Sequence record: OZ035755.1
DNA: 39,656 bases
Direction: 5' to 3' (one strand)
Source: Kayfunavirus AN17P1
The notes below the pieces were generated by a model. It had not been told where the DNA came from and searched no databases. It was given only the letters and a program-made list of their open reading frames with translations. The position numbers and the translations under genes were made by a program. Of this stretch, positions 30-39,493 are shown piece by piece; position 1 is the first letter of the stretch; each line of letters starts with the position of its first letter.

Positions 30-293
30 ATGACGCAGATGGACTTAGAGAAGTTCCTCTTGATGCTGGATACTGAACGTGCTAGACTCATGCTGCAAGA
101 CCTGCGGGATGACTCTAAGCGTTCACCTCAGCTTTACAACGCCATTGAGAAGCTACTGGCTCGTCACAACTTCGTGCTAAGCAAGGTGTCTGTTGACGAG
201 AAGACGCTCGCTGATATGGAGGCTTTGAACAGGGAGTACGATAAGGTGCTCTCAGCTACTGAGGATAACGACACCGGGTATGGTGTACAGTAA
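30..293 (+). CDS. gene 18: Terminase small subunit / DNA maturation protein A (T7 gp18-like), 87 aa
   Basis: Strong SD AAAGGAGG upstream of ATG; size and position immediately before the spanin pair and terminase large subunit match T7 gene 18 (89 aa). Confidence 0.7.
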   Translation: MTQMDLEKFLLMLDTERARLMLQDLRDDSKRSPQLYNAIEKLLARHNFVLSKVSVDEKTLADMEALNREYDKVLSATEDNDTGYGVQ

Positions 294-346: not shown

Positions 347-394
347 CTACGGGCGGAGACGCTACGTGGATTCTGAGAAATGAGGAGGGCAACT

Positions 395-832
395 ATGCTC
401 GAACTTTTACGTAAAGCAATCCCGTGGCTGGTTGCAGGACTCCTGTTCTGTTCTGGCTACTGGGTGGCAGACAATAAGTGGGAGGCGAAGGTAAACAATG
501 AGTACATCACGAAACTTGAGGCACGAGAGAATCAACGGGCTGCTGTCCAAGGTGAAATCAACAAAGTGTCAGCCGAGTGGCAAGACAAGATGTCCGCGCT
601 GGAAGGCTCTACTGATAGGATTATTGCTGACCTTAACCGCGATAACAAGCGGCTGCGCGTCCGAGTCAACACCTCAGGTCTCACCGAGTCAGATGTCAGT
701 AGATGCTTCCCTAATGGTAGAGTCGAACTACACCCAGAAACTTCTAAAAGTCTTATCCGATTAACTCAGGAGGCAGACCTTAAGGAGAAGGCGCTTCAGG
801 ACACAATAAGGAGGCTCCAAGGTGTTAAGTGA
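395..832 (+). CDS. gene 18.5: i-spanin (Rz-like, T7 gp18.5 homolog)
   Basis: Translation MLELLRKAIPWLVAGLLFCSGYW... resembles T7 gp18.5 N-terminus (MLEFLRKLIPW...) as I recall it; N-terminal TM segment; SD GAGGAGG 7 nt upstream of ATG 395 (the track's ATG 380 lies inside the SD). Confidence 0.8.
   Translation: MLELLRKAIPWLVAGLLFCSGYWVADNKWEAKVNNEYITKLEARENQRAAVQGEINKVSAEWQDKMSALEGSTDRIIADLNRDNKRLRVRVNTSGLTESDVSRCFPNGRVELHPETSKSLIRLTQEADLKEKALQDTIRRLQGVK
498..764 (+). CDS. gene 18.7: o-spanin (Rz1-like lipoprotein, T7 gp18.7 homolog) embedded in +1 frame of 18.5
   Basis: 88-aa ORF wholly inside the i-spanin gene in another frame; lipobox-like LTAITSGC followed by Pro/Ser-rich region; same embedded arrangement as T7 18.5/18.7. 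Confidence 0.75.
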   Translation: MSTSRNLRHERINGLLSKVKSTKCQPSGKTRCPRWKALLIGLLLTLTAITSGCASESTPQVSPSQMSVDASLMVESNYTQKLLKVLSD

Positions 833-1259
833 TTACTACAAAGTGGACCCGGCTAGTCCATCCGGTCTGGTCTCCGTTAGGACTGGAAAGCCTGTGGGGA
901 CATTAAGTCGGATGGGATATTGGATAGTACAGACACGAAGTCTAGGCAGTAAGCGGGCCCATCGTGTGATATGGGAACTAACCAATGGTCCTATACCGCA
1001 TGGTATGCAAATAGACCACATCGACAGGAACCCTAGCAATAATACCTTAAGTAACTTACGGCTCGTTACTGCCGCTGAAAACACTTGGAATACTGGTAGC
1101 CATTATGACTCTAAGACAGGAGTGAAGTGCGTTACCCGTCACCAGAATGGTTATAGGATTCAGGTTAAACGCGGGAATGCCTATATGCGAACAACACGTC
1201 CCACTTTAGAGGAGGCTATCGCTGTCCGGGACCTAATGCTGGAGGGACTATATGTCTAA
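822..1259 (+). CDS. HNH homing endonuclease (HNH plus AP2-like DNA-binding region), 145 aa
   Basis: Motif [41 protein letters not shown] typical of phage HNH endonucleases; GTG start with SD AAGGAGG; overlaps the 3' end of 18.5 and the 5' end of terminase; T7 has no gene here. Confidence 0.8.
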
Positions 1260-3018
1260 GAAAACACCCGCTGAAAGACAGGCAGAAATGGTCCAAAGGA
1301 TGAGGGACGACTTCGTGTTCTTCATCTTCGTTCTCTGGAAAGCACTAAGTCTTCCGGTTCCAACCCGCTGCCAGATAGATATGTGTAAGAAGCTGGCTGC
1401 TGGGGATAATCGCCGCTTCATCCTTCAGGCGTTCCGTGGTATTGGCAAGTCGTTTTTGACCTGTGGCTTTGTGGTCTGGAAGCTATGGAATAACCCAGAC
1501 TTGAAGTTCATGATTGTGTCGGCCTCAAAGGAACGAGCCGATGCGAACTCCATCTTCATCAAGCGAATCATCGACCTCATGCCTCAGCTTCGGGAACTCA
1601 AACCTAAGCAGGGGCAGCGAGATGCGGTTATCAGCTTCGACGTTGGACCAGCCAAGCCAGACCACTCACCTTCGGTTAAGTCCGTTGGTATCACTGGTCA
1701 GTTGACTGGTAGTCGTGCTGACATCCTGATTGCCGATGACGTGGAGGTTCCGAACAACTCAGCGACTCAGGCTGCACGAGACCGTCTATCAGAGCTTGTG
1801 AAAGAGTTCGACGCTATCCTGAAGCCGGGAGGTACGATCATCTATCTGGGTACTCCTCAGAACGAGATGACCCTGTACCGTGAGCTGGAAGGTCGTGGGT
1901 ACACCACTACTATCTGGCCCGCTCGTTATCCACGCGACAGGAAGGACTGGCAGTCTTACGGCGACCGTCTGGCTCCTATGCTTCAGGCAGAGCTGGAAGA
2001 GGACCCTGAGTCCTTCTACTGGCGTCCGACTGATGAAGTACGCTTCGATGATACGGACCTGAAGGAACGTGAGCTGTCCTACGGTAAAGCTGGCTTCGCT
2101 CTACAGTTCATGCTTAACCCGAACCTGAGTGATGCCGAGAAGTACCCTCTTAAGCTCCGTGACCTTATCGTAGCCGACTTGGACCCAGCGTCCAGCCCAA
2201 TGGTCTACCAATGGTTGCCGAACCCTCAGAACAAGCGTGAGGACGTTCCTAACGTTGGACTCATGGGTGACTCGTACCACACGTATCAGACTGTAGGTTC
2301 TGCCTTCAGCTCATACACCCAGAAGATTCTGGTCATTGACCCTAGTGGTCGTGGTAAGGATGAAACTGGATATGCGGTACTGTACCAGCTCAACGGCTAC
2401 ATCTTCGCTATGGAAGTTGGTGGCATGCGTGGTGGTTATGAAGACTCTACGCTGGAAGCCTTGGCTAAGATTGGTCGTAAGTGGAAGGTCAACGAGTACG
2501 TCATTGAGGGTAACTTCGGTGATGGTATGTACCTTGAGTTATTCAAGCCTGTAGCGGCCCGTATCCATCCTTCGTCTGTAACTGAAGTGAAGAGTAAGGG
2601 TCAGAAAGAACTCCGCATCTGTGACGTTCTGGAGCCTATCATGGGGTCTCACCGACTTATCGTTAACGCTGCTGCTATAGTCCAAGACTACCAGTCTGCC
2701 TCTGATAAGGATGGTGTTCGTAACCCTATCTACTCTCTCTTCTATCAGATGACACGTATCTCTCGTGAGCGTGGAGCCTTGGCACACGATGACCGACTTG
2801 ATGCGCTGGCTATCGGTGTACAGTTCTTCGTTGAGTCTATGGCTAAGGATGCTAGCAAAGGCGAACGTGAAGTCACTGAGGAATGGCTGGAGGAACAGAT
2901 GGAGAACCCACGGAAAGGCTTCGAGTCCATCCACACTGAGTTCTGGGACAATGGGGTCCGGGTAACTCACGATACGGACGACGAGCTTGGACTAGGGGCA
3001 TACGTTACGTTACACTAG
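1252..3018 (+). CDS. gene 19: Terminase large subunit (T7 gp19 homolog), 588 aa
   Basis: Length and position match T7 gp19 (586 aa); Walker A-like GIGKS and ATPase/nuclease-type motifs (LIADDVEVP); strong SD GGAGGGACTAT before ATG. Confidence 0.95.
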
Positions 3019-3027
3019 CTGAATGAA

Positions 3028-3076
3028 TAACTATAGGTGAAAGCTGCATGAATAAGCAGTTAGTAACCTATAGTTA
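3028..3076. repeat. Perfect 11-bp inverted repeat TAACTATAGGT / ACCTATAGTTA with 27-nt loop
   Basis: Arms at 3028-3038 and 3066-3076 are exact reverse complements; arms contain the promoter core ACTATAGG; lies directly after the terminase stop. Confidence 0.5.
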
Positions 3077-3112
3077 CTACCAGTCTAACATACTGTTTTA
3101 TAAGGAGTTTGG

Positions 3113-3136
3113 ACTTAACTATCACTATAGGGAAGA
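3113..3136 (+). promoter_or_regulatory. Phage RNAP promoter (phiOR-like, right end)
   Basis: TTAACTATCACTATAGGGAAG matches the 11-member consensus CTAAACTATCACTATAGGGA; +1 G at about 3130. Confidence 0.75.
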
Positions 3137-3315
3137 CCCCCGGTTACTTATAGTATTACTGTAGTGAATATACATATGCAGACTTTATTCAAGACCTTAG
3201 GAGGCAGACTCCGAGTTCTTACCTAAGGCTTGCACCGATGGAAGGAGGGTGATATTAATCATAATCCCTCCAATACAGATAGTCACCGACCATAGATACA
3301 GGAGGTATGTAGCAT

Positions 3316-3474
3316 ATGGCAAAGACCAAAGCTGTACTTAAAGCTCTGGCGACCAATCGAGCTACATACAGGTTTCTTGCTGCTGTTCTACTTGCTGCTG
3401 GCGTTACTGCTGGAAGTCAGTGGGTCGGGTGGGTCGAGACTCTCGTATGTTCTCTGGTCTCTCAGTGTAATTAA
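3316..3474 (+). CDS. Small membrane protein, 52 aa (gene 19.5 position)
   Basis: ATG with SD ACAGGAGG; translation MAKTKAVLKALATNRATYRFLAAVLLAAGVTAGSQWVGWVETLVCSLVSQCN has one hydrophobic helix; below the 60-aa track cutoff so read directly from sequence. Confidence 0.45.
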   Translation: MAKTKAVLKALATNRATYRFLAAVLLAAGVTAGSQWVGWVETLVCSLVSQCN

Positions 3475-3510
3475 CGCAATCATGATAACAATCAACGAAA
3501 GGAGGTAGGG

Positions 3511-3579
3511 ATGGACGAGGAGTCTTATGGGCCGTTCTCTGACGAAGATTATCAGACGGAGTGGGAATACGCGCATTGA
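3511..3579 (+). CDS. Very small acidic ORF, 22 aa (MDEESYGPFSDEDYQTEWEYAH)
   Basis: ATG preceded by SD AAAGGAGG at good spacing; no other support. Confidence 0.25.
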   Translation: MDEESYGPFSDEDYQTEWEYAH

Positions 3580-3583
3580 AGAC

Positions 3584-3624
3584 CTAAGGTCAGTTCATAG
3601 CTGACGCTACTCTACTGACCTTAG
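3584..3624. repeat. Inverted repeat CTAAGGTCAGT / ACTGACCTTAG (11-bp stem, 19-nt loop) near the right genome end
   Basis: Exact reverse-complement arms at 3584-3594 and 3614-3624; no downstream U-tract. Confidence 0.45.
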
Positions 3625-3699
3625 CTACTGTAGTCAAGGACTTTAGGTAACACCTTAATAGAAGCTCACTTAGGGTCATCCTACTTATTGGTCTATCCT

Positions 3700-4100
3700 A
3701 GTGTCGCCTGACCTACGGTCCTTGACCTACAGTAGCTGCCACCTACAGTATTCGATGAGTTTTGGACCAAAAGTTTGAGACCACATCTCACAGTTCAAGA
3801 ACCTCAAGTCTCCCCATAGGCCCTCTTTCAGTCCAGACCAAAGGCCCTACCCCAGTCTATCATAAGGTTAGACCGATGGTCAAGACTTCAGGTCAACGAT
3901 AGGTTGTGGCTATGGCTTAGGGAAGGACGATAGGTAGGGACTATTGGTCTGTCTTTGAGTCTCTATCTGTATCAGACCTTGAGTCACTACCTACAGTCTA
4001 ACTACCTACAGTCTAACTACCTACAGTCTAACTACCTACAGTCATCGACCATCGGTAATGCCGCTACCTACAGTCAGAGACCTACGGTTAATAGACACAA
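3700..4100. repeat. Genome terminus region: putative direct terminal repeat flanked by CCTAC(A/G)GT short repeats
   Basis: TCTCACAGTTCAAGAACC...CCCCATAGG at 3786 resembles the T7 (TCTCACAGTGTACGG) and T3 left-end sequences as I recall them; repeated GACCTACGGT / CACCTACAGT motifs on both sides mirror the CCTAAAG arrays flanking the T7 terminal repeat; no CDS. Repeat length cannot be read from a collapsed assembly. Confidence 0.5.
3986..4044. repeat. Tandem array, about 3.9 copies of 15-bp unit ACTACCTACAGTCTA
   Basis: Exact copies at 3986-4000, 4001-4015, 4016-4030 and a partial copy at 4031-4044. Confidence 0.9.
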
Positions 4101-4340
4101 GGCTATAGACTTAAGGTCTAAGACATGTTAGTCAAAGACTACATCCTCTTACACCATGGGGCCGACGATAGCTTAATCAATATTATTTCAAATTACCTAT
4201 TGACTATAGGTCCAGATTATGGCCTAATAGCTTCCGTCAACACGACACGGCAACAACCGGATAGTGAAGACGCCTGGTCATCCCGGTTAAGTAGACAGCC
4301 TGATAAGTCATACGAACAACAGGCAGATGACAGAAAGTAG

Positions 4341-4378
4341 TTGACAAGCAGTAACGATAAGATGTAAGCTGTACCACA
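4341..4378 (+). promoter_or_regulatory. Host sigma70 early promoter candidate (T7 A2/A3-like)
   Basis: Perfect -35 TTGACA (4341-4346), about 18-nt spacer, -10 TAAGCT, then GTACCACAT as in T7 A3 (TACGAT-GTACCACAT) as I recall it; about 200 nt upstream of the first early gene. Confidence 0.5.
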
Positions 4379-4486
4379 TCAAAACAACGGTGACGACCGA
4401 CACTGAAACGGTCTACCTGAAGTCCTCTGACTGAAGGGAATGCTCTTTAACAATCTGGATAAACTCTTAATGTGCGCCGATAGCGA

Positions 4487-4543
4487 CTAACTACAGGGTC
4501 TTTGAGTCTACATCTGAAGGCCCTGACTGATAGTCACTAACAA
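4487..4543 (+). promoter_or_regulatory. Conserved leader element, copy 1 (TAACTACAGGGTC ... CCTGACTGATAGTCACTAA), possible RNase III / translation-initiation leader
   Basis: Shares a 19-nt exact block CCTGACTGATAGTCACTAA and a TAACTACAGG(G)TC block with 4842-4892; ends about 17 nt before the start codon at 4560; small CAGGG/CCCTG stem. Confidence 0.5.
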
Positions 4544-4559
4544 CCTAAGAGGATTCATT

Positions 4560-4838
4560 ATGAGACTGAACAAAGCTACAGCAGAAGCCTTTCGCAAGGA
4601 GCTTGAATCAAGATTATTGTGTGGAGTGGCGGAAGGAGCCGCTCGATATAAAGAGAATGGTCTAACGTTCAAGCGCTTTATGTGGGATTGCTATCACGGA
4701 GTGGGCCATAAAAAGTTGCAGGAAATAATCACCAGCAACAATGCAGAAGTGCAAGTGATAGGAGGATATATGGCTAACGTGAAGGATTCACACATCGAGA
4801 CCATGCTTAAGAATGCACTTAACGATGTAGCCTACTAG
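4560..4838 (+). CDS. Hypothetical early protein, 92 aa; first gene to enter the cell, upstream of ocr
   Basis: SD AAGAGG before ATG; uninterrupted ORF; sits behind a copy of the same leader element as ocr; no recognisable family. Confidence 0.6.
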   Translation: MRLNKATAEAFRKELESRLLCGVAEGAARYKENGLTFKRFMWDCYHGVGHKKLQEIITSNNAEVQVIGGYMANVKDSHIETMLKNALNDVAY

Positions 4839-6455: not shown

Positions 6456-9137
6456 ATGAGCGTCATCTCTATTGACAAACACGACTTCTCTGATGTGTCG
6501 AACGCCATTGAGCCGTTTAACCTGCTGGCTGACCACTACGGGCAAGACCTTGCAGTCAAACAGCTTCAGCTGGAGCACGAGGCATACACTGAAGGCGAGC
6601 GACGTTTCATCAAAAACCTTGAGCGACAGACTGAGCGCGGGGAACTGGCAGACAATCAGGTAGCCAAGCCTTTGATGCAGACTCTGGTCCCTAAGATTGC
6701 GCAAGCCGTCAGGGAGTGGCATGAAGGTCCAGACGGGAAGCTGTCAACCTCTCGTCCGAGCGTAGCGTTCACCATGTTAAGCACTGAAGAGAAGGCCGTC
6801 AAGGACCGCTCTCTTCGCATCTCCTGCGAGTCTGCTGCGGTTATCATACTGAAGGTCATCCTATCCAAGCTGGTCAAACCTGAAGGTATACCGATTACAC
6901 CGATGGCCTCCGCGATAGGTCGCACACTTGAGGATGAAATCCGATTCGGTCGCATTCGTGACAAGGAGAAGGAGCACTTCAAGAAGGCGATAGCTGATAA
7001 CCTGAACAAGAGAGCCGGGGCATCATACAAGAAAGCCTACATGCAAGCGGTCGAGACATCCATGCTGGAGCAAGGCCAACTAGAAGATGCGTGGGGAACT
7101 TGGAGTCCGACCGAGGCTGTCCACGTTGGAATCAAGATGCTGGAGATTGTCATCCAGTCAACACAACTGGTCGAGCTTAAGCGTTACGGTGCTGGCAATG
7201 CAGCGGCTGACGTTGAGATGGTCCACCTGTCAGACTTCTGGGTCAAGAAGATGACACAACGCGGCTTCAGCCTTGCGGGTATCGCTCCAGTCTACCAACC
7301 TTGCGTAGTTCCACCTAAGCCGTGGACTGGTGTCGTAGGCGGTGGGTACTGGGCCAAAGGTCGCAGACCATTACCACTGATTCGCTTAGGGTCTAAGTCT
7401 GCGGTGGCACGTTACGAAGACGTGTATATGCCTGAAGTCTATGACGCTGTTAACATAATCCAGAATACACCTTGGAAAGTGAACAAGAAGGTTCTGGACG
7501 TGGTGAACATGGTCGAGAAGTTGAACAACACGCCTATTGATGACATCCCTCAGATGGAGCCACTGAAGCCTGAAGAATATGCGGGTGAGACTGAAGAGGA
7601 ACTCAAGGCGTGGAAGAAAGCGGCTGCTGGTATCTATCGCCGCGAGAAGGCCAGACAGTCACGCAGATTGTCGCTGAGCTTTATCGTTAACCAAGCGAAC
7701 AAGTTCTCTCAGTTCAAGACCATCTGGTTCCCGTATAACATGGACTGGCGCGGTCGCGTCTACGCTGTGCCGATGTTCAACCCTCAGGGTAACGACATGC
7801 AAAAGGGTCTCCTGACTCTGGCAGTCGGTAAGCCTATTGGTGCTGATGGTTTCAAATGGCTGAAGGTCCACGGTGCAAACTGTGCGGGTGTCGATAAAGT
7901 AACCTTCGAGGAGCGCATCAAGTGGGTGGAAGATAACCACGACAACATCATGGCTACCTCTAAGGCACCGATGGACAGCATTGAGTGGTGGGGAAAGTTA
8001 GACTCTCCGTTCTGCTTCCTAGCGTTCTGCTTCGAGTATGCCGGCGTAATGCATCACGGATTGTCTTACTCCTGCTCGCTGCCGATAGCTTTCGATGGGT
8101 CCTGCTCTGGGATTCAGCACTTTAGCGCGATGCTTCGTGATCACATCGGTGGACATGCAGTAAACCTGACGCCTTCCGGTAAGGTCCAAGACATCTACCG
8201 CATCGTGTCTGACCGCATTGAGGAAGAGCTTAAAGTCCTGCTGGTTAACGGCACGGACAACGAGATGGTAACTCACGAGGACAAGAAAACTGGTGAGATT
8301 ACCGAACGTCTCAAGCTGGGGACACGAGAGCTGGCCCGGCAGTGGCTGACTTACGGTATGTCACGCAAGGTTACTAAGCGCTCAGTCATGACTCTGGCCT
8401 ATGGGTCGAAAGAGTACGGCTTTGCAGACCAAGTTTATGAGGACATCGTGATGCCAGCGATTGACTCAGGGTCTGGCGCTATGTTCACTGAACCAAGCCA
8501 AGCGTCCTGCTTCATGGCTAAGATGATTTGGGAAGCTGTGAGTGTGACCGTAGTTGCTGCGGTTGACGCGATGAAGTGGCTTCAAGGTGCTGCCAAGCTG
8601 CTGGCGGCTGAAGTGAAGGACAAGAAGACTGGAGAAATCCTGAAGCCTTGCCTTCCGGTACACTGGGTCACACCTGATGGGTTCCCGGTCTGGCAGGAAT
8701 ACCGCAAGAAGGATACCACTCGTCTGAACCTGATGTTCTTAGGGTCATTCAACCTTCAGCCTACCGTCAACAAAGGCACGAAGAAGGAGTTGGATAAGCA
8801 CAAGCAGGAGTCAGGAATTAGCCCGAACTTCGTCCACTCACAAGATGGTAGCCATCTCCGCAAGACTGTAGTCCACACTCACCGTAAGTATGGCGTGATG
8901 TCGTTCGCAGTGATTCACGATAGCTTCGGGACCATCCCGGCTGACGCTGAATATCTGTTCCGTGGTGTCCGTGAGACGATGGTCGAGACCTACCGCGATA
9001 ACGATGTGCTGCTTGACTTCTACGAGCAGTTTGAATACCAACTTCATGAGAGCCAGCGCGACAAGTTGCCTGAGCTTCCGAAGAAAGGTAAACTGAATAT
9101 TGAGGACATTCTATCTTCAGACTTTGCATTCGCTTAA
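6456..9137 (+). CDS. gene 1: T7-type single-subunit DNA-dependent RNA polymerase, 893 aa
   Basis: Collinear similarity to T7 RNAP as I recall it (AIWFPYNMDWRGRVYAV, HGANCAGVDK, SPFCFLAFCFEYAG, SCSGIQHFSAMLRD, IHDSFGT, C-terminal FAFA). Confidence 0.97.
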   Translation: MSVISIDKHDFSDVSNAIEPFNLLADHYGQDLAVKQLQLEHEAYTEGERRFIKNLERQTERGELADNQVAKPLMQTLVPKIAQAVREWHEGPDGKLSTSRPSVAFTMLSTEEKAVKDRSLRISCESAAVIILKVILSKLVKPEGIPITPMASAIGRTLEDEIRFGRIRDKEKEHFKKAIADNLNKRAGASYKKAYMQAVETSMLEQGQLEDAWGTWSPTEAVHVGIKMLEIVIQSTQLVELKRYGAGNAAADVEMVHLSDFWVKKMTQRGFSLAGIAPVYQPCVVPPKPWTGVVGGGYWAKGRRPLPLIRLGSKSAVARYEDVYMPEVYDAVNIIQNTPWKVNKKVLDVVNMVEKLNNTPIDDIPQMEPLKPEEYAGETEEELKAWKKAAAGIYRREKARQSRRLSLSFIVNQANKFSQFKTIWFPYNMDWRGRVYAVPMFNPQGNDMQKGLLTLAVGKPIGADGFKWLKVHGANCAGVDKVTFEERIKWVEDNHDNIMATSKAPMDSIEWWGKLDSPFCFLAFCFEYAGVMHHGLSYSCSLPIAFDGSCSGIQHFSAMLRDHIGGHAVNLTPSGKVQDIYRIVSDRIEEELKVLLVNGTDNEMVTHEDKKTGEITERLKLGTRELARQWLTYGMSRKVTKRSVMTLAYGSKEYGFADQVYEDIVMPAIDSGSGAMFTEPSQASCFMAKMIWEAVSVTVVAAVDAMKWLQGAAKLLAAEVKDKKTGEILKPCLPVHWVTPDGFPVWQEYRKKDTTRLNLMFLGSFNLQPTVNKGTKKELDKHKQESGISPNFVHSQDGSHLRKTVVHTHRKYGVMSFAVIHDSFGTIPADAEYLFRGVRETMVETYRDNDVLLDFYEQFEYQLHESQRDKLPELPKKGKLNIEDILSSDFAFA

Positions 9138-29261: not shown

Positions 29262-29311
29262 AAGGGCCTATAGATTTACCTTAACTATCACTATAGGGAC
29301 TATAGGCCCTT
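29262..29311. repeat. Perfect 12-bp inverted repeat AAGGGCCTATAG / CTATAGGCCCTT enclosing the phi13 promoter core
   Basis: Arms at 29262-29273 and 29300-29311 are exact reverse complements; the 26-nt loop holds TTAACTATCACTATAGGGA. Confidence 0.6.
29279..29302 (+). promoter_or_regulatory. Phage RNAP promoter (phi13-like)
   Basis: CCTTAACTATCACTATAGGGACT; consensus match. Confidence 0.75.
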
Positions 29312-29330
29312 AAGGTTATAAGGAGACTTT

Positions 29331-36623: not shown

Positions 36624-39155
36624 ATGTCCACGATTACACAATTCCCTTCAGGAAACACTCAGTACAGGATTGAGTTCGACTACCTAGCCAGAACGTTTGT
36701 TGTTGTTACGCTGGTGAATAGCTCTAACCCTACCCTGAACCGTGTACTGGAAGTTGGTCGAGATTACCGATTCCTTAATCCAACGATGATTGAGATGTTG
36801 GTTGACCAATCAGGTTTCGACATAGTTCGTATTCACCGTCAGACTGGAACTGACTTAGTGGTAGACTTCAGGAATGGCTCAGTGTTGACAGCTAGTGACC
36901 TGACCAATGCAGAGCTTCAGGCTATCCATATTGCAGAAGAAGGTCGAGACCAAACGGTTGACTTAGCGAAGGAATATGCCGATGCTGCTGGTAGCTCTGC
37001 TGGCAACGCTAAGGATAGCGAGGACGAAGCACGCCGAATCGCTGCGAGTATCAGGGAAGCTGGTCTAATTGGCTATATTACCCGTCGCTCCTTCGAGAAA
37101 GGCTACAACGTTACAACATGGAGTGAGGTCCTGCTATGGGAAGAGGATGGTGATTATTACCGCTGGGATGGTACGCTTCCAAAGAACGTTCCTGCTGGTT
37201 CAACTCCTGAAACTTCCGGTGGGATTGGATTAGGTGCGTGGGTTAGTGTTGGTGATGCTGCTTTAAGAAGTCAGATTTCAAACCCGGAAGGGGCAATACT
37301 CTACCCGGAATTGCAGATGGCAAGATGGCGTGATGAGGGTGATGTTCGAGGCTGGGGTGCTAAAGGGGATGGTGTAACAGATAGTACGGAGAATATAGCT
37401 GCTTCACTAAATTCTCAAAAAGCTGTCGTAGCATCAGAAGGTGTATTCTCTAGTTCTGGTATTAATAGTAATTACTGTAACTTAGACGGTAGGGGTAGTG
37501 GCGTGCTAAGTCACCGTTCCAGTACAGGTAACTACTTAGTATTTAACAATCCACGTACAGGTCGCTTAAGTAATATTACGGTAGAAAGTAATAAGGCGAC
37601 TGATACAACTCAGGGACAGCAGGTATCTCTTGCGGGTGGAAGTGATGTTACTGTAAGTGACGTTAACTTCTCAAACGTTAAAGGTACTGGTTTCAGTTTA
37701 ATCGCATACCCTAATGATGCGCCACCTGATGGACTTATGATTAAAGGCATTCGAGGTAGCTATTCCGGCTATGCTACTAATAAGGCAGCCGGATGCGTAC
37801 TTGCTGACTCCTCAGTTAACTCCCTCATAGATAACGTCATTGCTAAGAACTACCCTCAGTTCGGAGCAGTGGAGTTGAAAGGTACAGCCAGTTACAACAT
37901 AGTCAGTAATGTTATAGGGGCAGATTGCCAGCATGTAACTTACAACGGCACTGAAGGGCTAATAGCTCCTTCTAATAACATTATAAAGGGGGTGATTGCT
38001 AATAACCCTAAGTATGCAGCGGTTGTTGCAGGCAAAGGAAATACGAACTTAATCTCAGACGTGCTCGTAGATTACTCAACTTCTGATGCTAGGCAGGCTC
38101 ATGGCATTACCGTAGAAGGGTCTGATAACGTCATAAATAATGTGCTTATGTCAGGATGTGATGGTACTAACTCTTTAGGACAAGGGCAGACTGCTACAAT
38201 TGCACGCTTTATAGGTACAGCTAATAACAACTATGCGTCTGTATTTCCTAGCTACAGTGCTACAGGTGTTATTACTTTCGAATCCGGCTCTACCCGTAAC
38301 TTCGTAGAGGTAAAGCACCCTGGCAGGAGAAACGACCTTCTCAGTTCTGCTAGTACTATTGACGGTGCAGCTACTATTGACGGCACTAGTAATAGTAACG
38401 TAGTGCACGCACCTGCCTTAGGGCAGTACATAGGTAGTATGTCAGGTAGGTTCGAATGGCGGATTAAGGCCATGTCACTCCCTTCAGGCGTTCTTACTTC
38501 TGCTGATAAGTACAGAATGCTTGGGGATGGTGCTGTGTCATTAGCTGTAGGTGGTGGTGCATCTTCTCAAGTTCGACTATTTACTTCTGATGGTATTTAT
38601 CGGACAGTATCCCTCACCAACGGCAACGTGCGTCTTCCTACCAGTAGCACAGGTTATTTGCAGTTAGGTCCTGATGCAATGACCCCAGATAGTACTAATA
38701 CATACGCATTAGGTTCCGCAAGTAGAGCATGGTCTGGCGGTTTTACTCAATCAGCATTCACTGTTGTCTCAGATGCTAGGGATAAAACAGAGCCTCTTAA
38801 TATCTCAGATGCTTTACTGGATGCTTGGTCTGAAGTTGACTTTGTGCAGTTTCAGTACTTGGACCGAATTGAGGAGAAGGGTGCAGACTCAGCTAGATGG
38901 CACTTCGGCATCATCGCTCAGCGAGCTAAGGAGGCCTTCGAACGTCACGGTATAGATGCACATCGCTATGGCTTCCTGTGCTTCGACAGTTGGGATGATG
39001 TATACGAGGAAGATGCCAATGGCTCTCGTAAACTGATTACACCAGCAGGTTCCCGCTACGGTATTCGTTACGAGGAAGTACTGATATTAGAGGCTGCGTT
39101 GATGCGGCGTACTATTAAGCGTATGCAGGAAGCATTAGCTGTTATGTCTAAGTGA
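36624..39155 (+). CDS. gene 17: Tail fiber / tailspike: T7 gp17-like N-terminal tail-attachment domain, beta-helix (pectate-lyase-like) domain, C-terminal intramolecular chaperone (peptidase S74-like) domain; 843 aa
   Basis: First roughly 150 aa collinear with T7 gp17 (FDYLARTFVVVTL, DYRF, VDFRNGSVLTASDL, AIHIAEEGRD); middle has GAKGDGVTD beta-helix hallmark and Gly/Asn/Ser/Thr/Val-rich repeats; C-terminus VVSDARDKTEP...WHFGIIAQ...YGFLCFDSWDD fits the self-cleaving chaperone domain of endosialidase-type tailspikes. Confidence 0.9.
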   Translation: MSTITQFPSGNTQYRIEFDYLARTFVVVTLVNSSNPTLNRVLEVGRDYRFLNPTMIEMLVDQSGFDIVRIHRQTGTDLVVDFRNGSVLTASDLTNAELQAIHIAEEGRDQTVDLAKEYADAAGSSAGNAKDSEDEARRIAASIREAGLIGYITRRSFEKGYNVTTWSEVLLWEEDGDYYRWDGTLPKNVPAGSTPETSGGIGLGAWVSVGDAALRSQISNPEGAILYPELQMARWRDEGDVRGWGAKGDGVTDSTENIAASLNSQKAVVASEGVFSSSGINSNYCNLDGRGSGVLSHRSSTGNYLVFNNPRTGRLSNITVESNKATDTTQGQQVSLAGGSDVTVSDVNFSNVKGTGFSLIAYPNDAPPDGLMIKGIRGSYSGYATNKAAGCVLADSSVNSLIDNVIAKNYPQFGAVELKGTASYNIVSNVIGADCQHVTYNGTEGLIAPSNNIIKGVIANNPKYAAVVAGKGNTNLISDVLVDYSTSDARQAHGITVEGSDNVINNVLMSGCDGTNSLGQGQTATIARFIGTANNNYASVFPSYSATGVITFESGSTRNFVEVKHPGRRNDLLSSASTIDGAATIDGTSNSNVVHAPALGQYIGSMSGRFEWRIKAMSLPSGVLTSADKYRMLGDGAVSLAVGGGASSQVRLFTSDGIYRTVSLTNGNVRLPTSSTGYLQLGPDAMTPDSTNTYALGSASRAWSGGFTQSAFTVVSDARDKTEPLNISDALLDAWSEVDFVQFQYLDRIEEKGADSARWHFGIIAQRAKEAFERHGIDAHRYGFLCFDSWDDVYEEDANGSRKLITPAGSRYGIRYEEVLILEAALMRRTIKRMQEALAVMSK

Positions 39156-39493
39156 GTAATACTGGTACGGTATTTTCGCACAATGAAATCGTTGAACACA
39201 CTGACGAGGAGGGTAATGTCACTACTACGGAAGAACCTGTATACACCGAGGTGTTTATTCACGAAGAGGGTGGGGAGTAGGGTGTTCGGCCTGACGGAAT
39301 TTTCTTTGCTGAAGCCGCTTATCAGAGAAGAAAACTGGAAAGAATCGAAGCCAGACTTTCTGCTCTTGAACAGAAGTAATAAACAAAACCATTTTGCCAT
39401 TAAGTTGGTGTGGGGGGGTAGAGACTAACTACACGCTAACCAACGTATGTAACAACTTTGGGTCACGGACGACCCGCTTTAAACTGGAGGTTT

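Follow-up and report, generated by a model that had tools for sequence, protein, structure and literature searches.

Where does the packaged chromosome of this phage begin and end, and what is the stretch of about 1 kb without convincing genes that lies between gene 19.5 and the early genes? An earlier note, made from the letters of the window (the whole 39,656-nt stretch of DNA analysed here), had placed genome ends and a concatemer junction in this area. We propose that the region 3580-4560 is very probably the concatemer junction of a K1F-like phage of the T7 family, in the form in which replication produces it and a short-read assembler reproduces it. The arrangement is ordinary, known biology, already described in T7, T3 and K1F and annotated in close relatives. 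The features of the region and its surroundings are collected in Table 1.

Table 1. Coordinates of the junction features and neighbouring genes in the window.
Feature	Position	Strand	Description and basis
Gene 18	30-293		
Rz	380-832		
HNH endonuclease	822-1259		
Terminase large subunit, gene 19	1252-3018		
Phage RNA-polymerase promoter phiOR	3113-3135	+	ACTTAACTATCACTATAGGGAAG; identical to phiOR of EcoDS1
Gene 19.5	3316-3474	+	52 aa; last conserved gene before the right end; ORF list, gp19.5 in the EcoDS1 annotation
Conserved stem-loop	3584-3624		Arms 3584-3594 and 3614-3624; 11-bp lower stem, 4-bp upper stem within the 19-nt spacer
Left-flank cluster	3709-3749	+	CCTACRGT at 3712, 3726 and 3742; spacing 14 and 16 bp; conserved in relatives
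Conserved block adjoining the left cut site	3753-3785		CGATGAGTTTTGGACCAAAAGTTTGAGACCACA; near-palindrome TTTTGGACCAAAA at 3760-3772
Direct terminal repeat (DTR)	3786-3964		179 bp, one collapsed copy; alignment to Peacock, Vec13, EcoDS1 and K1F
Leftward sigma-70-like site	3854-3883	-	TTGACC, 18-nt spacer, TG-TAGACT; inside the DTR; consensus scan
Right cut site	3963-3971	+	CTATCTGTA; invariant in 18/18 junctions
Right-flank cluster	3975-4088	+	GACCTTGAGTC, tandem array, ACCATCGGT, CCTACAGT at 4067, CCTACGGT at 4081
Perfect tandem array	3986-4043	+	Period 15, 3.9 copies, 100% matches, unit ACTACCTACAGTCTA; Tandem Repeats Finder
A1-like host-polymerase early promoter	4200-4236	+	TTGACTATAGGTCCAGATTATGGCCTAATAGCTTCCG; homologue of the first host RNAP promoter in the EcoDS1 annotation
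A2-like host-polymerase early promoter	4341-4379	+	TTGACAAGCAGTAACGATAAGATGTAAGCT...; position and -35 match the second host promoter of EcoDS1; by similarity only
RNA polymerase gene	6456-9137		After the early genes

A megablast search with positions 3300-4700 matched 393 phage records, the best of which are Kayfunavirus genomes with 90-97% identity. This genus comprises the K1F-like phages and belongs to the Studiervirinae within the Autographiviridae. Similar to T7, the phage encodes a homologous terminase (gp18 and gp19, with 52 and 64% identity to the T7 proteins, respectively) and RNA polymerase (62%). The surroundings of the junction are likewise those of T7, with phiOR and gene 19.5 upstream (25 loci homologous to the latter were retrieved), strong host promoters to the right and same-strand short repeats on both flanks.

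In the window, a Kayfunavirus genome has been assembled in circularly permuted form, with the break inside the holin gene 17.5. Each 15-mer of the terminal repeat is present in a single copy in the window and none recurs, and no terminal overlap was found between the two ends of the window. Its last 600 and first 600 bases form one colinear alignment to an internal stretch of phage Vec13, which runs across the wrap point and locates this point within the holin gene. The single-copy 15-mers and this alignment bear out the idea of the earlier note that the window is a rotated full genome with its terminal repeat collapsed. Both collapse and rotation by assemblers have been reported for the terminal repeats of T7-like phages (PMC10438801). 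Since one copy of the DTR has been collapsed, the predicted virion chromosome amounts to 39,835 bp (39,656 + 179), and it would run from 3786 round the circle to 3964. For annotation purposes, the sequence is to be re-oriented to start at 3786 with the 179-bp repeat added at the right end, and open reading frames called across 3762-4340 are suspect.

The position of both ends follows from four reference records in which the repeat is either annotated or held as an exact copy at both ends (Peacock, Vec13, EcoDS1 and K1F). In Peacock, a "direct terminal repeat predicted by PhageTerm" spans 1-179 and is 99% identical to the window; in Vec13, 1-179 and 39569-39747 are annotated as a "long terminal repeat", and in EcoDS1, 1-178 and 39075-39252 as a "terminal repeat". 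The latter record also has a "concatemeric junction" feature at 177-184, which is the homologue of the 8 bp at the right boundary in the window. The repeat is unannotated in the K1F record, the two ends of which have an exact 178-bp copy in common. When the two ends within each record were compared, the repeats proved exact over 179, 178 and 178 bp, each beginning with TCTCACAG and finishing with ...GAGTCTCT, the K1F copy being one base shorter and ending ...GAGTCTC; in the left arm of these relatives, ATCTGTAT comes directly after the end of the repeat. In addition, when window positions 1300-3964 are aligned to the right end of Vec13, the match breaks off at 3964, opposite the last base of the Vec13 record, and a search with 3786-3985 retrieved many Kayfunavirus records that start exactly at the base aligned to 3786. 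Because the window has the same two boundaries as the repeats of its relatives, the DTR is assigned to 3786-3964. From this homology we infer that the physical ends are T3786 of TCTCACAG on the left and T3964, closing ...GAGTCTCT, on the right. The earlier note had put the true ends here and had pointed out the resemblance of the sequence at 3786 to the left end of T7 and T3, and both points are supported: position 3786 aligns with the first base of the Peacock, Vec13, EcoDS1 and K1F records, and TCTCACAGTTCAAGAACCTCAAGTCTCCCCATAGG, which starts there, is identical to T7 over its first 8 nt and to T3 at 17 of its first 18 nt. The right boundary at 3964, the length of 179 bp and the adjoining ATCTGTA go beyond what that note had placed.

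The length of the repeat fits the group to which the phage belongs. Within the genus the DTR ranges from 166 to 231 bp by internal insertions and deletions. Run-off sequencing of K1F-like Citrobacter phages gave repeats of 183 and 190 bp, with K1F cited at 179 bp, and the repeats of the K1F-like phages SH3, SH4 and SH5 were measured by the same method (PMC4925675). K1F, EcoDS1, Vec13 and Peacock contain the same element as the window, with a repeat that is 95-99% identical, identical boundaries, and the same stem-loop, left-flank motifs and host promoters. These relatives differ only in the copy number and unit type of the right-flank array and in whether the stem-loop is preceded by a 22-codon ORF.

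A conservation map of 18 aligned Kayfunavirus junctions, drawn from GenBank records and IMG/VR contigs, has its peaks at both cut sites, at ATCTGTA and at the arms of the stem-loop, and its minimum in the array. Stretches of 8 nt or more without any variation lie at 3584-3594, 3613-3624, 3626-3641, 3725-3733, 3963-3971 and 4035-4042, together with those around the left cut site, where 3769-3815 is invariant but for two positions (runs 3769-3792, 3794-3802 and 3804-3815). The left-end motif TCTCAYAG, present as TCTCACAG at 3786, is invariant in 17 of the 18 junctions. The block that adjoins the left cut site is likely a recognition element for left-end cutting, judging from its conservation and from the related ACCA(T/C)AAAAATCTGA block that T7 and T3 have in the same place.

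The T7 and T3 junctions, rebuilt from their reference records, share the ends of the repeat with the window and little of what lies between. The T7 left end is the same TCTCACAG, that of T3 is TCTCATAG, and the 17 matches over the first 18 nt of T3 fall in TCTCATAGTTCAAGAACC. At the other end, the repeats of T7 (160 bp) and T3 (231 bp) both close with ...GTGTCCCT followed by ATCTGTT, whereas the window has ...CT followed by ATCTGTA. The repeat of the window is longer than that of T7, and alignment between the two is confined to their termini; in T3 the repeat is longer still, with a different interior and different flanks. The common points with T3 are the ATCTGT boundary motif, short-repeat arrays (of CCTAAAG in T3) and a hairpin left of the repeat.

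The ATCTGTA at 3965-3971, directly right of the DTR, matches the class II pause and termination signal of T7 at six of seven bases. The class II signal at concatemer junctions is a short conserved motif, and for T7 polymerase a strict conservation of ATCTGTT has been described (bioRxiv 10.64898/2026.02.12.705533). At class II sites of the junction type, ATCTGTT follows A, C or T on the non-template strand where the repeat ends on the right; the window reads T-ATCTGTA there, a match at only six of seven bases, and is therefore no strict member of the class. The seventh base is A in all 18 Kayfunavirus genomes and T in T7. Given the T7/T3-like position and the six matching bases, the motif may nevertheless work like the T7 signal with its cognate polymerase; that the polymerase of this phage, only 62% identical to that of T7, pauses at ATCTGTA is an assumption by analogy. 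ATCTGTW occurs only twice on the transcribed strand of the window, one of the two being the junction site, yet avoidance of the motif on this strand is not significant (two sites on the plus and six on the minus strand, in total 8 vs 10.9 expected). The genome ends of T7 proved dispensable for the most part in an insertion screen, the exceptions being positions 142 and 162, beside the pause site (PMC11482910).

By analogy with T7 and T3, the junction would be processed as follows. Late transcription from phiOR (3113) and upstream promoters would run rightward through gene 19.5, the stem-loop, the left cluster and the DTR, and the polymerase would pause at the ATCTGTA adjoining the right DTR boundary. 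The paused polymerase-lysozyme complex would then recruit the terminase (gp18 and gp19) with a prohead; in T7, as reported in PMC3276506, which cites Zhang and Studier (2004), the complex paused there engages gp18 and gp19 and maturation starts. The terminase would cut at 3964/3965 and 3785/3786, and the single copy of the DTR would be duplicated by strand-displacement synthesis, so that every packaged genome would have one copy at each end. All of these steps, from the pausing through the recruitment of terminase and the cuts it makes to the doubling of the repeat, are transferred from T7/T3 biology.

The phage promoter phiOR, one of 11 promoter copies in the window, reads rightward via gene 19.5 into the junction. 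Both host-polymerase early promoters were missed by a sigma-70 consensus scan and were placed by homology to EcoDS1. The leftward sigma-70-like site inside the DTR is a possible counterpart of the A0 promoter of T7 and T3, which is annotated within or beside the terminal repeat. A search allowing up to six mismatches to the promoter consensus found no phiOL-type promoter between the DTR and A1, which makes the left side unlike that of T7 and T3, where phiOL is present. A promoter-like remnant lies at about 3653-3676, but its core has lost 1 nt and EcoDS1 has no counterpart, so it was not called a promoter.

The inverted repeat at 3584-3624, to which the earlier note had ascribed a possible part in packaging or processing, is present, with 11-nt arms of 100% complementarity around a 19-nt spacer. 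With the arms set at 11 nt or more and the loop at 3-40 nt, perfect inverted repeats occur at only three loci in the window, this one included, vs 0.34 expected. Among 44 junctions we found nine distinct variants of the stem-loop, with spacers of three main types. Over these nine variants, compensatory double changes are seen at four pairs, with 98.5% of the cells paired, far above shuffled and slid controls. The distance from the centre of the stem-loop to the start of the DTR is 181-194 nt in 23 of 25 sequences (the window and 24 related loci), whereas anything from 211 to 362 nt separates the gene 19.5 stop from the left end. In T7, T3 and the window alike, a hairpin is found roughly 190 bp left of the repeat: here the centre (3604) lies at 182 bp, in T7 the hairpin GGTATGAT-tgc-ATCACACC (centre 39,588) lies at 190 bp, and in T3 GGTATAGT-ttc-ACTACACC lies at 184 bp. 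The T7 and T3 hairpins show two compensatory changes relative to each other; that of the window is larger than the T7 hairpin (11 + 4 bp vs 8 bp) and unrelated in sequence. Chung, Nardone and Hinkle reportedly proposed in 1990 that a T7 hairpin at this location is an intermediate in the duplication of the repeat. The stem-loop is, on this analogy, the apparent positional counterpart of that hairpin, and its role as part of a packaging or processing signal is plausible from its conservation and placement.

The short repeats are concentrated around the DTR as well. CCTACRGT occurs 17 times in the window vs 2.8 +/- 1.5 expected, a count reached in 0 of 100 shuffles. Nine of these copies fall within 3712-4088, all on the plus strand, three left and six right of the DTR, the latter starting at 3990, 4005, 4020, 4035, 4067 and 4081. 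The earlier note had seen such motifs on both sides, culminating in an array of about 3.9 copies from 3986; this stands, except that Tandem Repeats Finder ends the array at 4043 and not at 4044. Its comparison to the CCTAAAG arrays of T7 is exact as regards layout, since T7 has 22 copies on the plus and three on the minus strand, clustered in the repeat and on both flanks: three in each repeat copy, eight closely following on the right (175-332) and two in the adjoining left flank, with T3 similar. The sequences differ, CCTACRGT recurring with a period of about 15 bp in the window and CCTAAAG at 12-13 bp in T7. By position and strand, the left-flank cluster appears to correspond to the right-end SRR of T7 and the right-flank cluster to its left-end SRL. 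We know of no established role for flanking arrays of the SRL/SRR type in any T7-like phage.

Whether the region marks genome ends at all is the first point on which another account can be given, namely that of an ordinary intergenic control or origin region, with the real ends elsewhere or with circular permutation by headful packaging. We consider this very improbable, in view of the base-for-base homology to termini determined by run-off sequencing in the K1F group and by PhageTerm in Peacock, the T7-type terminase that the phage encodes, and the conservation of the boundary motifs TCTCAYAG and ATCTGT. Headful (pac) and cohesive-end (cos) packaging were both rejected, given the exact 178-179 bp repeats at both ends of the linear records of relatives and the mapping of K1F-group ends by run-off sequencing (PMC4925675). 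The stem-loop leaves more room. It is quite possible that it acts in RNA, as a 3'-stabilising hairpin or an RNase III-type site on late transcripts that would end after gene 19.5 or the 22-codon ORF, and has no direct role in packaging. The element starts 5 nt past the stop codon of the last ORF and folds well as RNA (-20.5 kcal/mol, z = -3.1), and one pair of the upper stem is G-U in four of the nine variants, which is tolerated in RNA but leaves a C-A mismatch on the other DNA strand. Another long perfect inverted repeat, at 29262-29312, brackets a phage promoter in the manner of the T3 RNase III sites R13 and R6.5. Set against an RNase III site, which is an interrupted hairpin of about two helical turns that the host enzyme cleaves in an intercistronic transcript, the stem-loop has stems of 11 and 4 bp with an internal loop, and covaries. 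Yet the T7 and T3 annotations have no RNase III site after gene 19.5, an Rfam scan of 3000-4700 gave no match at E <= 1, an intrinsic-terminator scan found none, and no T run follows the stem-loop. Moreover, it is the distance to the DTR that is nearly constant while that to the gene 19.5 stop varies, and the hairpins of T7 and T3, unrelated to this one, lie equally far from their repeats. The covariation itself is equally compatible with RNA and with single-stranded or cruciform DNA.

For the short repeats, it is possible, if rather doubtful, that the array and the flanking clusters have no sequence-specific function and are slippage-prone filler of drifting copy number that spaces the real signals. 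The array, with its lowest point at 3976-4020, is the least conserved part of the junction among the 18 compared; close relatives, otherwise more than 90% identical, hold two, three or four copies of the same 15-mer, and other lineages have CCATARGT-type units in its position. Its 100% perfection implies a recent expansion, and most insertions at the T7 genome ends were tolerated (PMC11482910). Against filler speak the same-strand arrays of one motif family on both DTR flanks in three genera whose flanks are otherwise unalignable, the invariance of the last array unit (4035-4042) and of 3725-3733 in the left flank across 18 genomes, and the orientation of all nine copies on one strand. Within the concatemer junction that we favour, the clusters are regarded as accessory, with freedom in the number of copies but conservation of an array as such. 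A more specific proposal is that the flanking repeats are the densest one-strand cluster of a palindromic motif found genome-wide in the Studiervirinae, which would be the binding site of a symmetric DNA-binding protein such as the small terminase or another phage protein. We regard this as unlikely, and the positional conservation of single sites, no better than that of control patterns, speaks against it; if true, a protein-binding motif would give the SRL/SRR arrays of T7-like phages a testable function.

With respect to the wider group, the T7 layout of cut sites, pause motif, flanking same-strand repeats and upstream hairpin is confirmed in the K1F group with genus-specific sequences. Two observations go a little further than the routine. 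One is the covariation of the upstream stem-loop, with a distance to the repeat that is kept across three genera; the other is that the core of the flanking repeats belongs to a motif over-represented genome-wide in the subfamily.

This dispersed motif, for which we found no description in the literature, was noted as a ten-fold genome-wide enrichment of ACC-N4-GTC (ACCWNNRGTC, 63 vs 6.6 expected). When all pairs of 3-mers were counted at all spacings with the junction left out, GAC-N5-GTC ranked first, with 71 occurrences in the whole window (61 when the junction is left out) vs about 10-16 expected. The AC-N5-GT core occurs 420 times vs 187 expected. Both are in excess only at the N5 spacing, and a comparison of the 16 dinucleotide palindromes showed the enrichment to be specific. 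The logo is symmetric, with the core ACYNNNRGT and, in Kayfunavirus, the extension A-GAC-Y-NNN-R-GTC-T; the core is matched by ACCTACAGT, the repeat of the junction, as well as by ACCTAAAGT, that of T7. Positional conservation among relatives that are about 91% identical gave no excess, with 79% for AC-N5-GT and 81% for GAC-N5-GTC vs 68-81% for control spacings. Codon usage was rejected as the source, as sites occur in all three frames and are densest in non-coding DNA (11.6/kb vs 3.5/kb in coding DNA), and a general property of coliphages or Autographiviridae was rejected on the absence of the enrichment in lambda and SP6. All Kayfunavirus fragments show this enrichment strongly, and T7 and T3 to a lesser degree. 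In these two phages, as in the window, the bins with the highest density of the motif lie at the genome ends.

The CCTACRGT repeats on both flanks of the direct terminal repeat represent one special case of a motif over-represented across the genome, the palindrome GAC-N5-GTC, whose core is ACYNNNRGT. In the whole window it is found at 71 sites where about 10-16 are expected, and the shorter form AC-N5-GT at 420 (187 expected), with the excess confined to the N5 spacing only. The sites fall in all reading frames, their non-coding density is three times the coding density and they are most densely packed at 3501-4500. The same motif is enriched in T7 and T3, albeit less strongly than in the window, and SP6 and lambda are without such enrichment. 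Conversely, GAC-N3-GTC is nearly missing (one site vs. 9-25 at adjacent spacings) and GATC occurs just four times in the whole window. This scarcity, which extends to T7, T3 and the Kayfunavirus loci, looks like restriction-site avoidance.

Around the genome ends, several smaller elements accompany these repeats (coordinates are collected in the table). The terminal repeat itself varies from 166 to 231 bp within the genus. IMGVR_UViG_3300045988_000139 carries a unit of about 23 bp, GGGACTATTGGTCAACGATAGGT, in tandem within it, and LM33P1 shows a 23-bp insertion. Upstream of the conserved stem-loop, a 22-codon ORF with a strong ribosome-binding site (AAGGAGGT) is found in 7 of the 18 aligned genome-end regions. 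Its product has no Pfam match. The window and Vec13 copies are separated by six synonymous and two conservative differences and, because the copies differ mostly by synonymous changes, the predicted ORF is suggested to be a real accessory micro-gene. The ORFs that run across the terminal repeat, the 15-bp tandem array and the A1-like host promoter are probably not genes. They overlap with packaging signals and a promoter, and several publicly deposited genomes, e.g., Peacock (149-244, 338-553) and PM129, annotate such ORFs as coding for hypothetical proteins.

A promoter-like remnant is kept in 16 of those 18 regions, being missing from EcoDS1 and divergent in T147P5; a comparable T7 sequence, CCTATAGGGTCC, lies immediately left of the right repeat. 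In contrast to T7 and T3, where phiOL is present, no phiOL-type phage promoter is found from the terminal repeat to the first host promoter. The interval 3965-4560 contains only two recognisable A-type host promoters (4200-4236 and 4341-4379), whereas three are annotated in EcoDS1.

Features in and around the genome ends and elsewhere in the window
Feature	Position	Strand	Remarks
GAC-N5-GTC, example sites	300, 3581, 4108, 6382, 9453, 16636, 22196		From window-wide count
HNH_3 homing-endonuclease ORF, 145 aa	822-1259	+	Pfam E = 7e-21
Inverted repeat TAACTATAGGT...ACCTATAGTTA	3028-3076		Directly 3' of gene 19, upstream of phage promoter phiOR
22-codon ORF MDEESYGPFSDEDYQTEWEYAH	3511-3579	+	Between gene 19.5 and stem-loop
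Promoter-like remnant AATAGAAGCTCACTTAGGGTCAT	~3653-3676	+	Resembles phage promoter core TCACTATAGGGA, minus one base
ORFs spanning terminal repeat, array and A1 promoter	3762-3902, 3955-4131, 4125-4340		Probably not genes
Inverted repeat AAGGGCCTATAG...CTATAGGCCCTT	29262-29312		Arms bracket phage promoter at 29279

Besides the stem-loop, only two loci in the window carry an inverted repeat with perfect arms of 11 nt or more. The promoter-bracketing one has a layout like that of two RNase III sites annotated in T3, R13 and R6.5. The HNH_3 ORF is flanked by Rz on one side and the gene for the large terminase subunit on the other; compared with the window, about 415 bp are missing at this location in Vec13.
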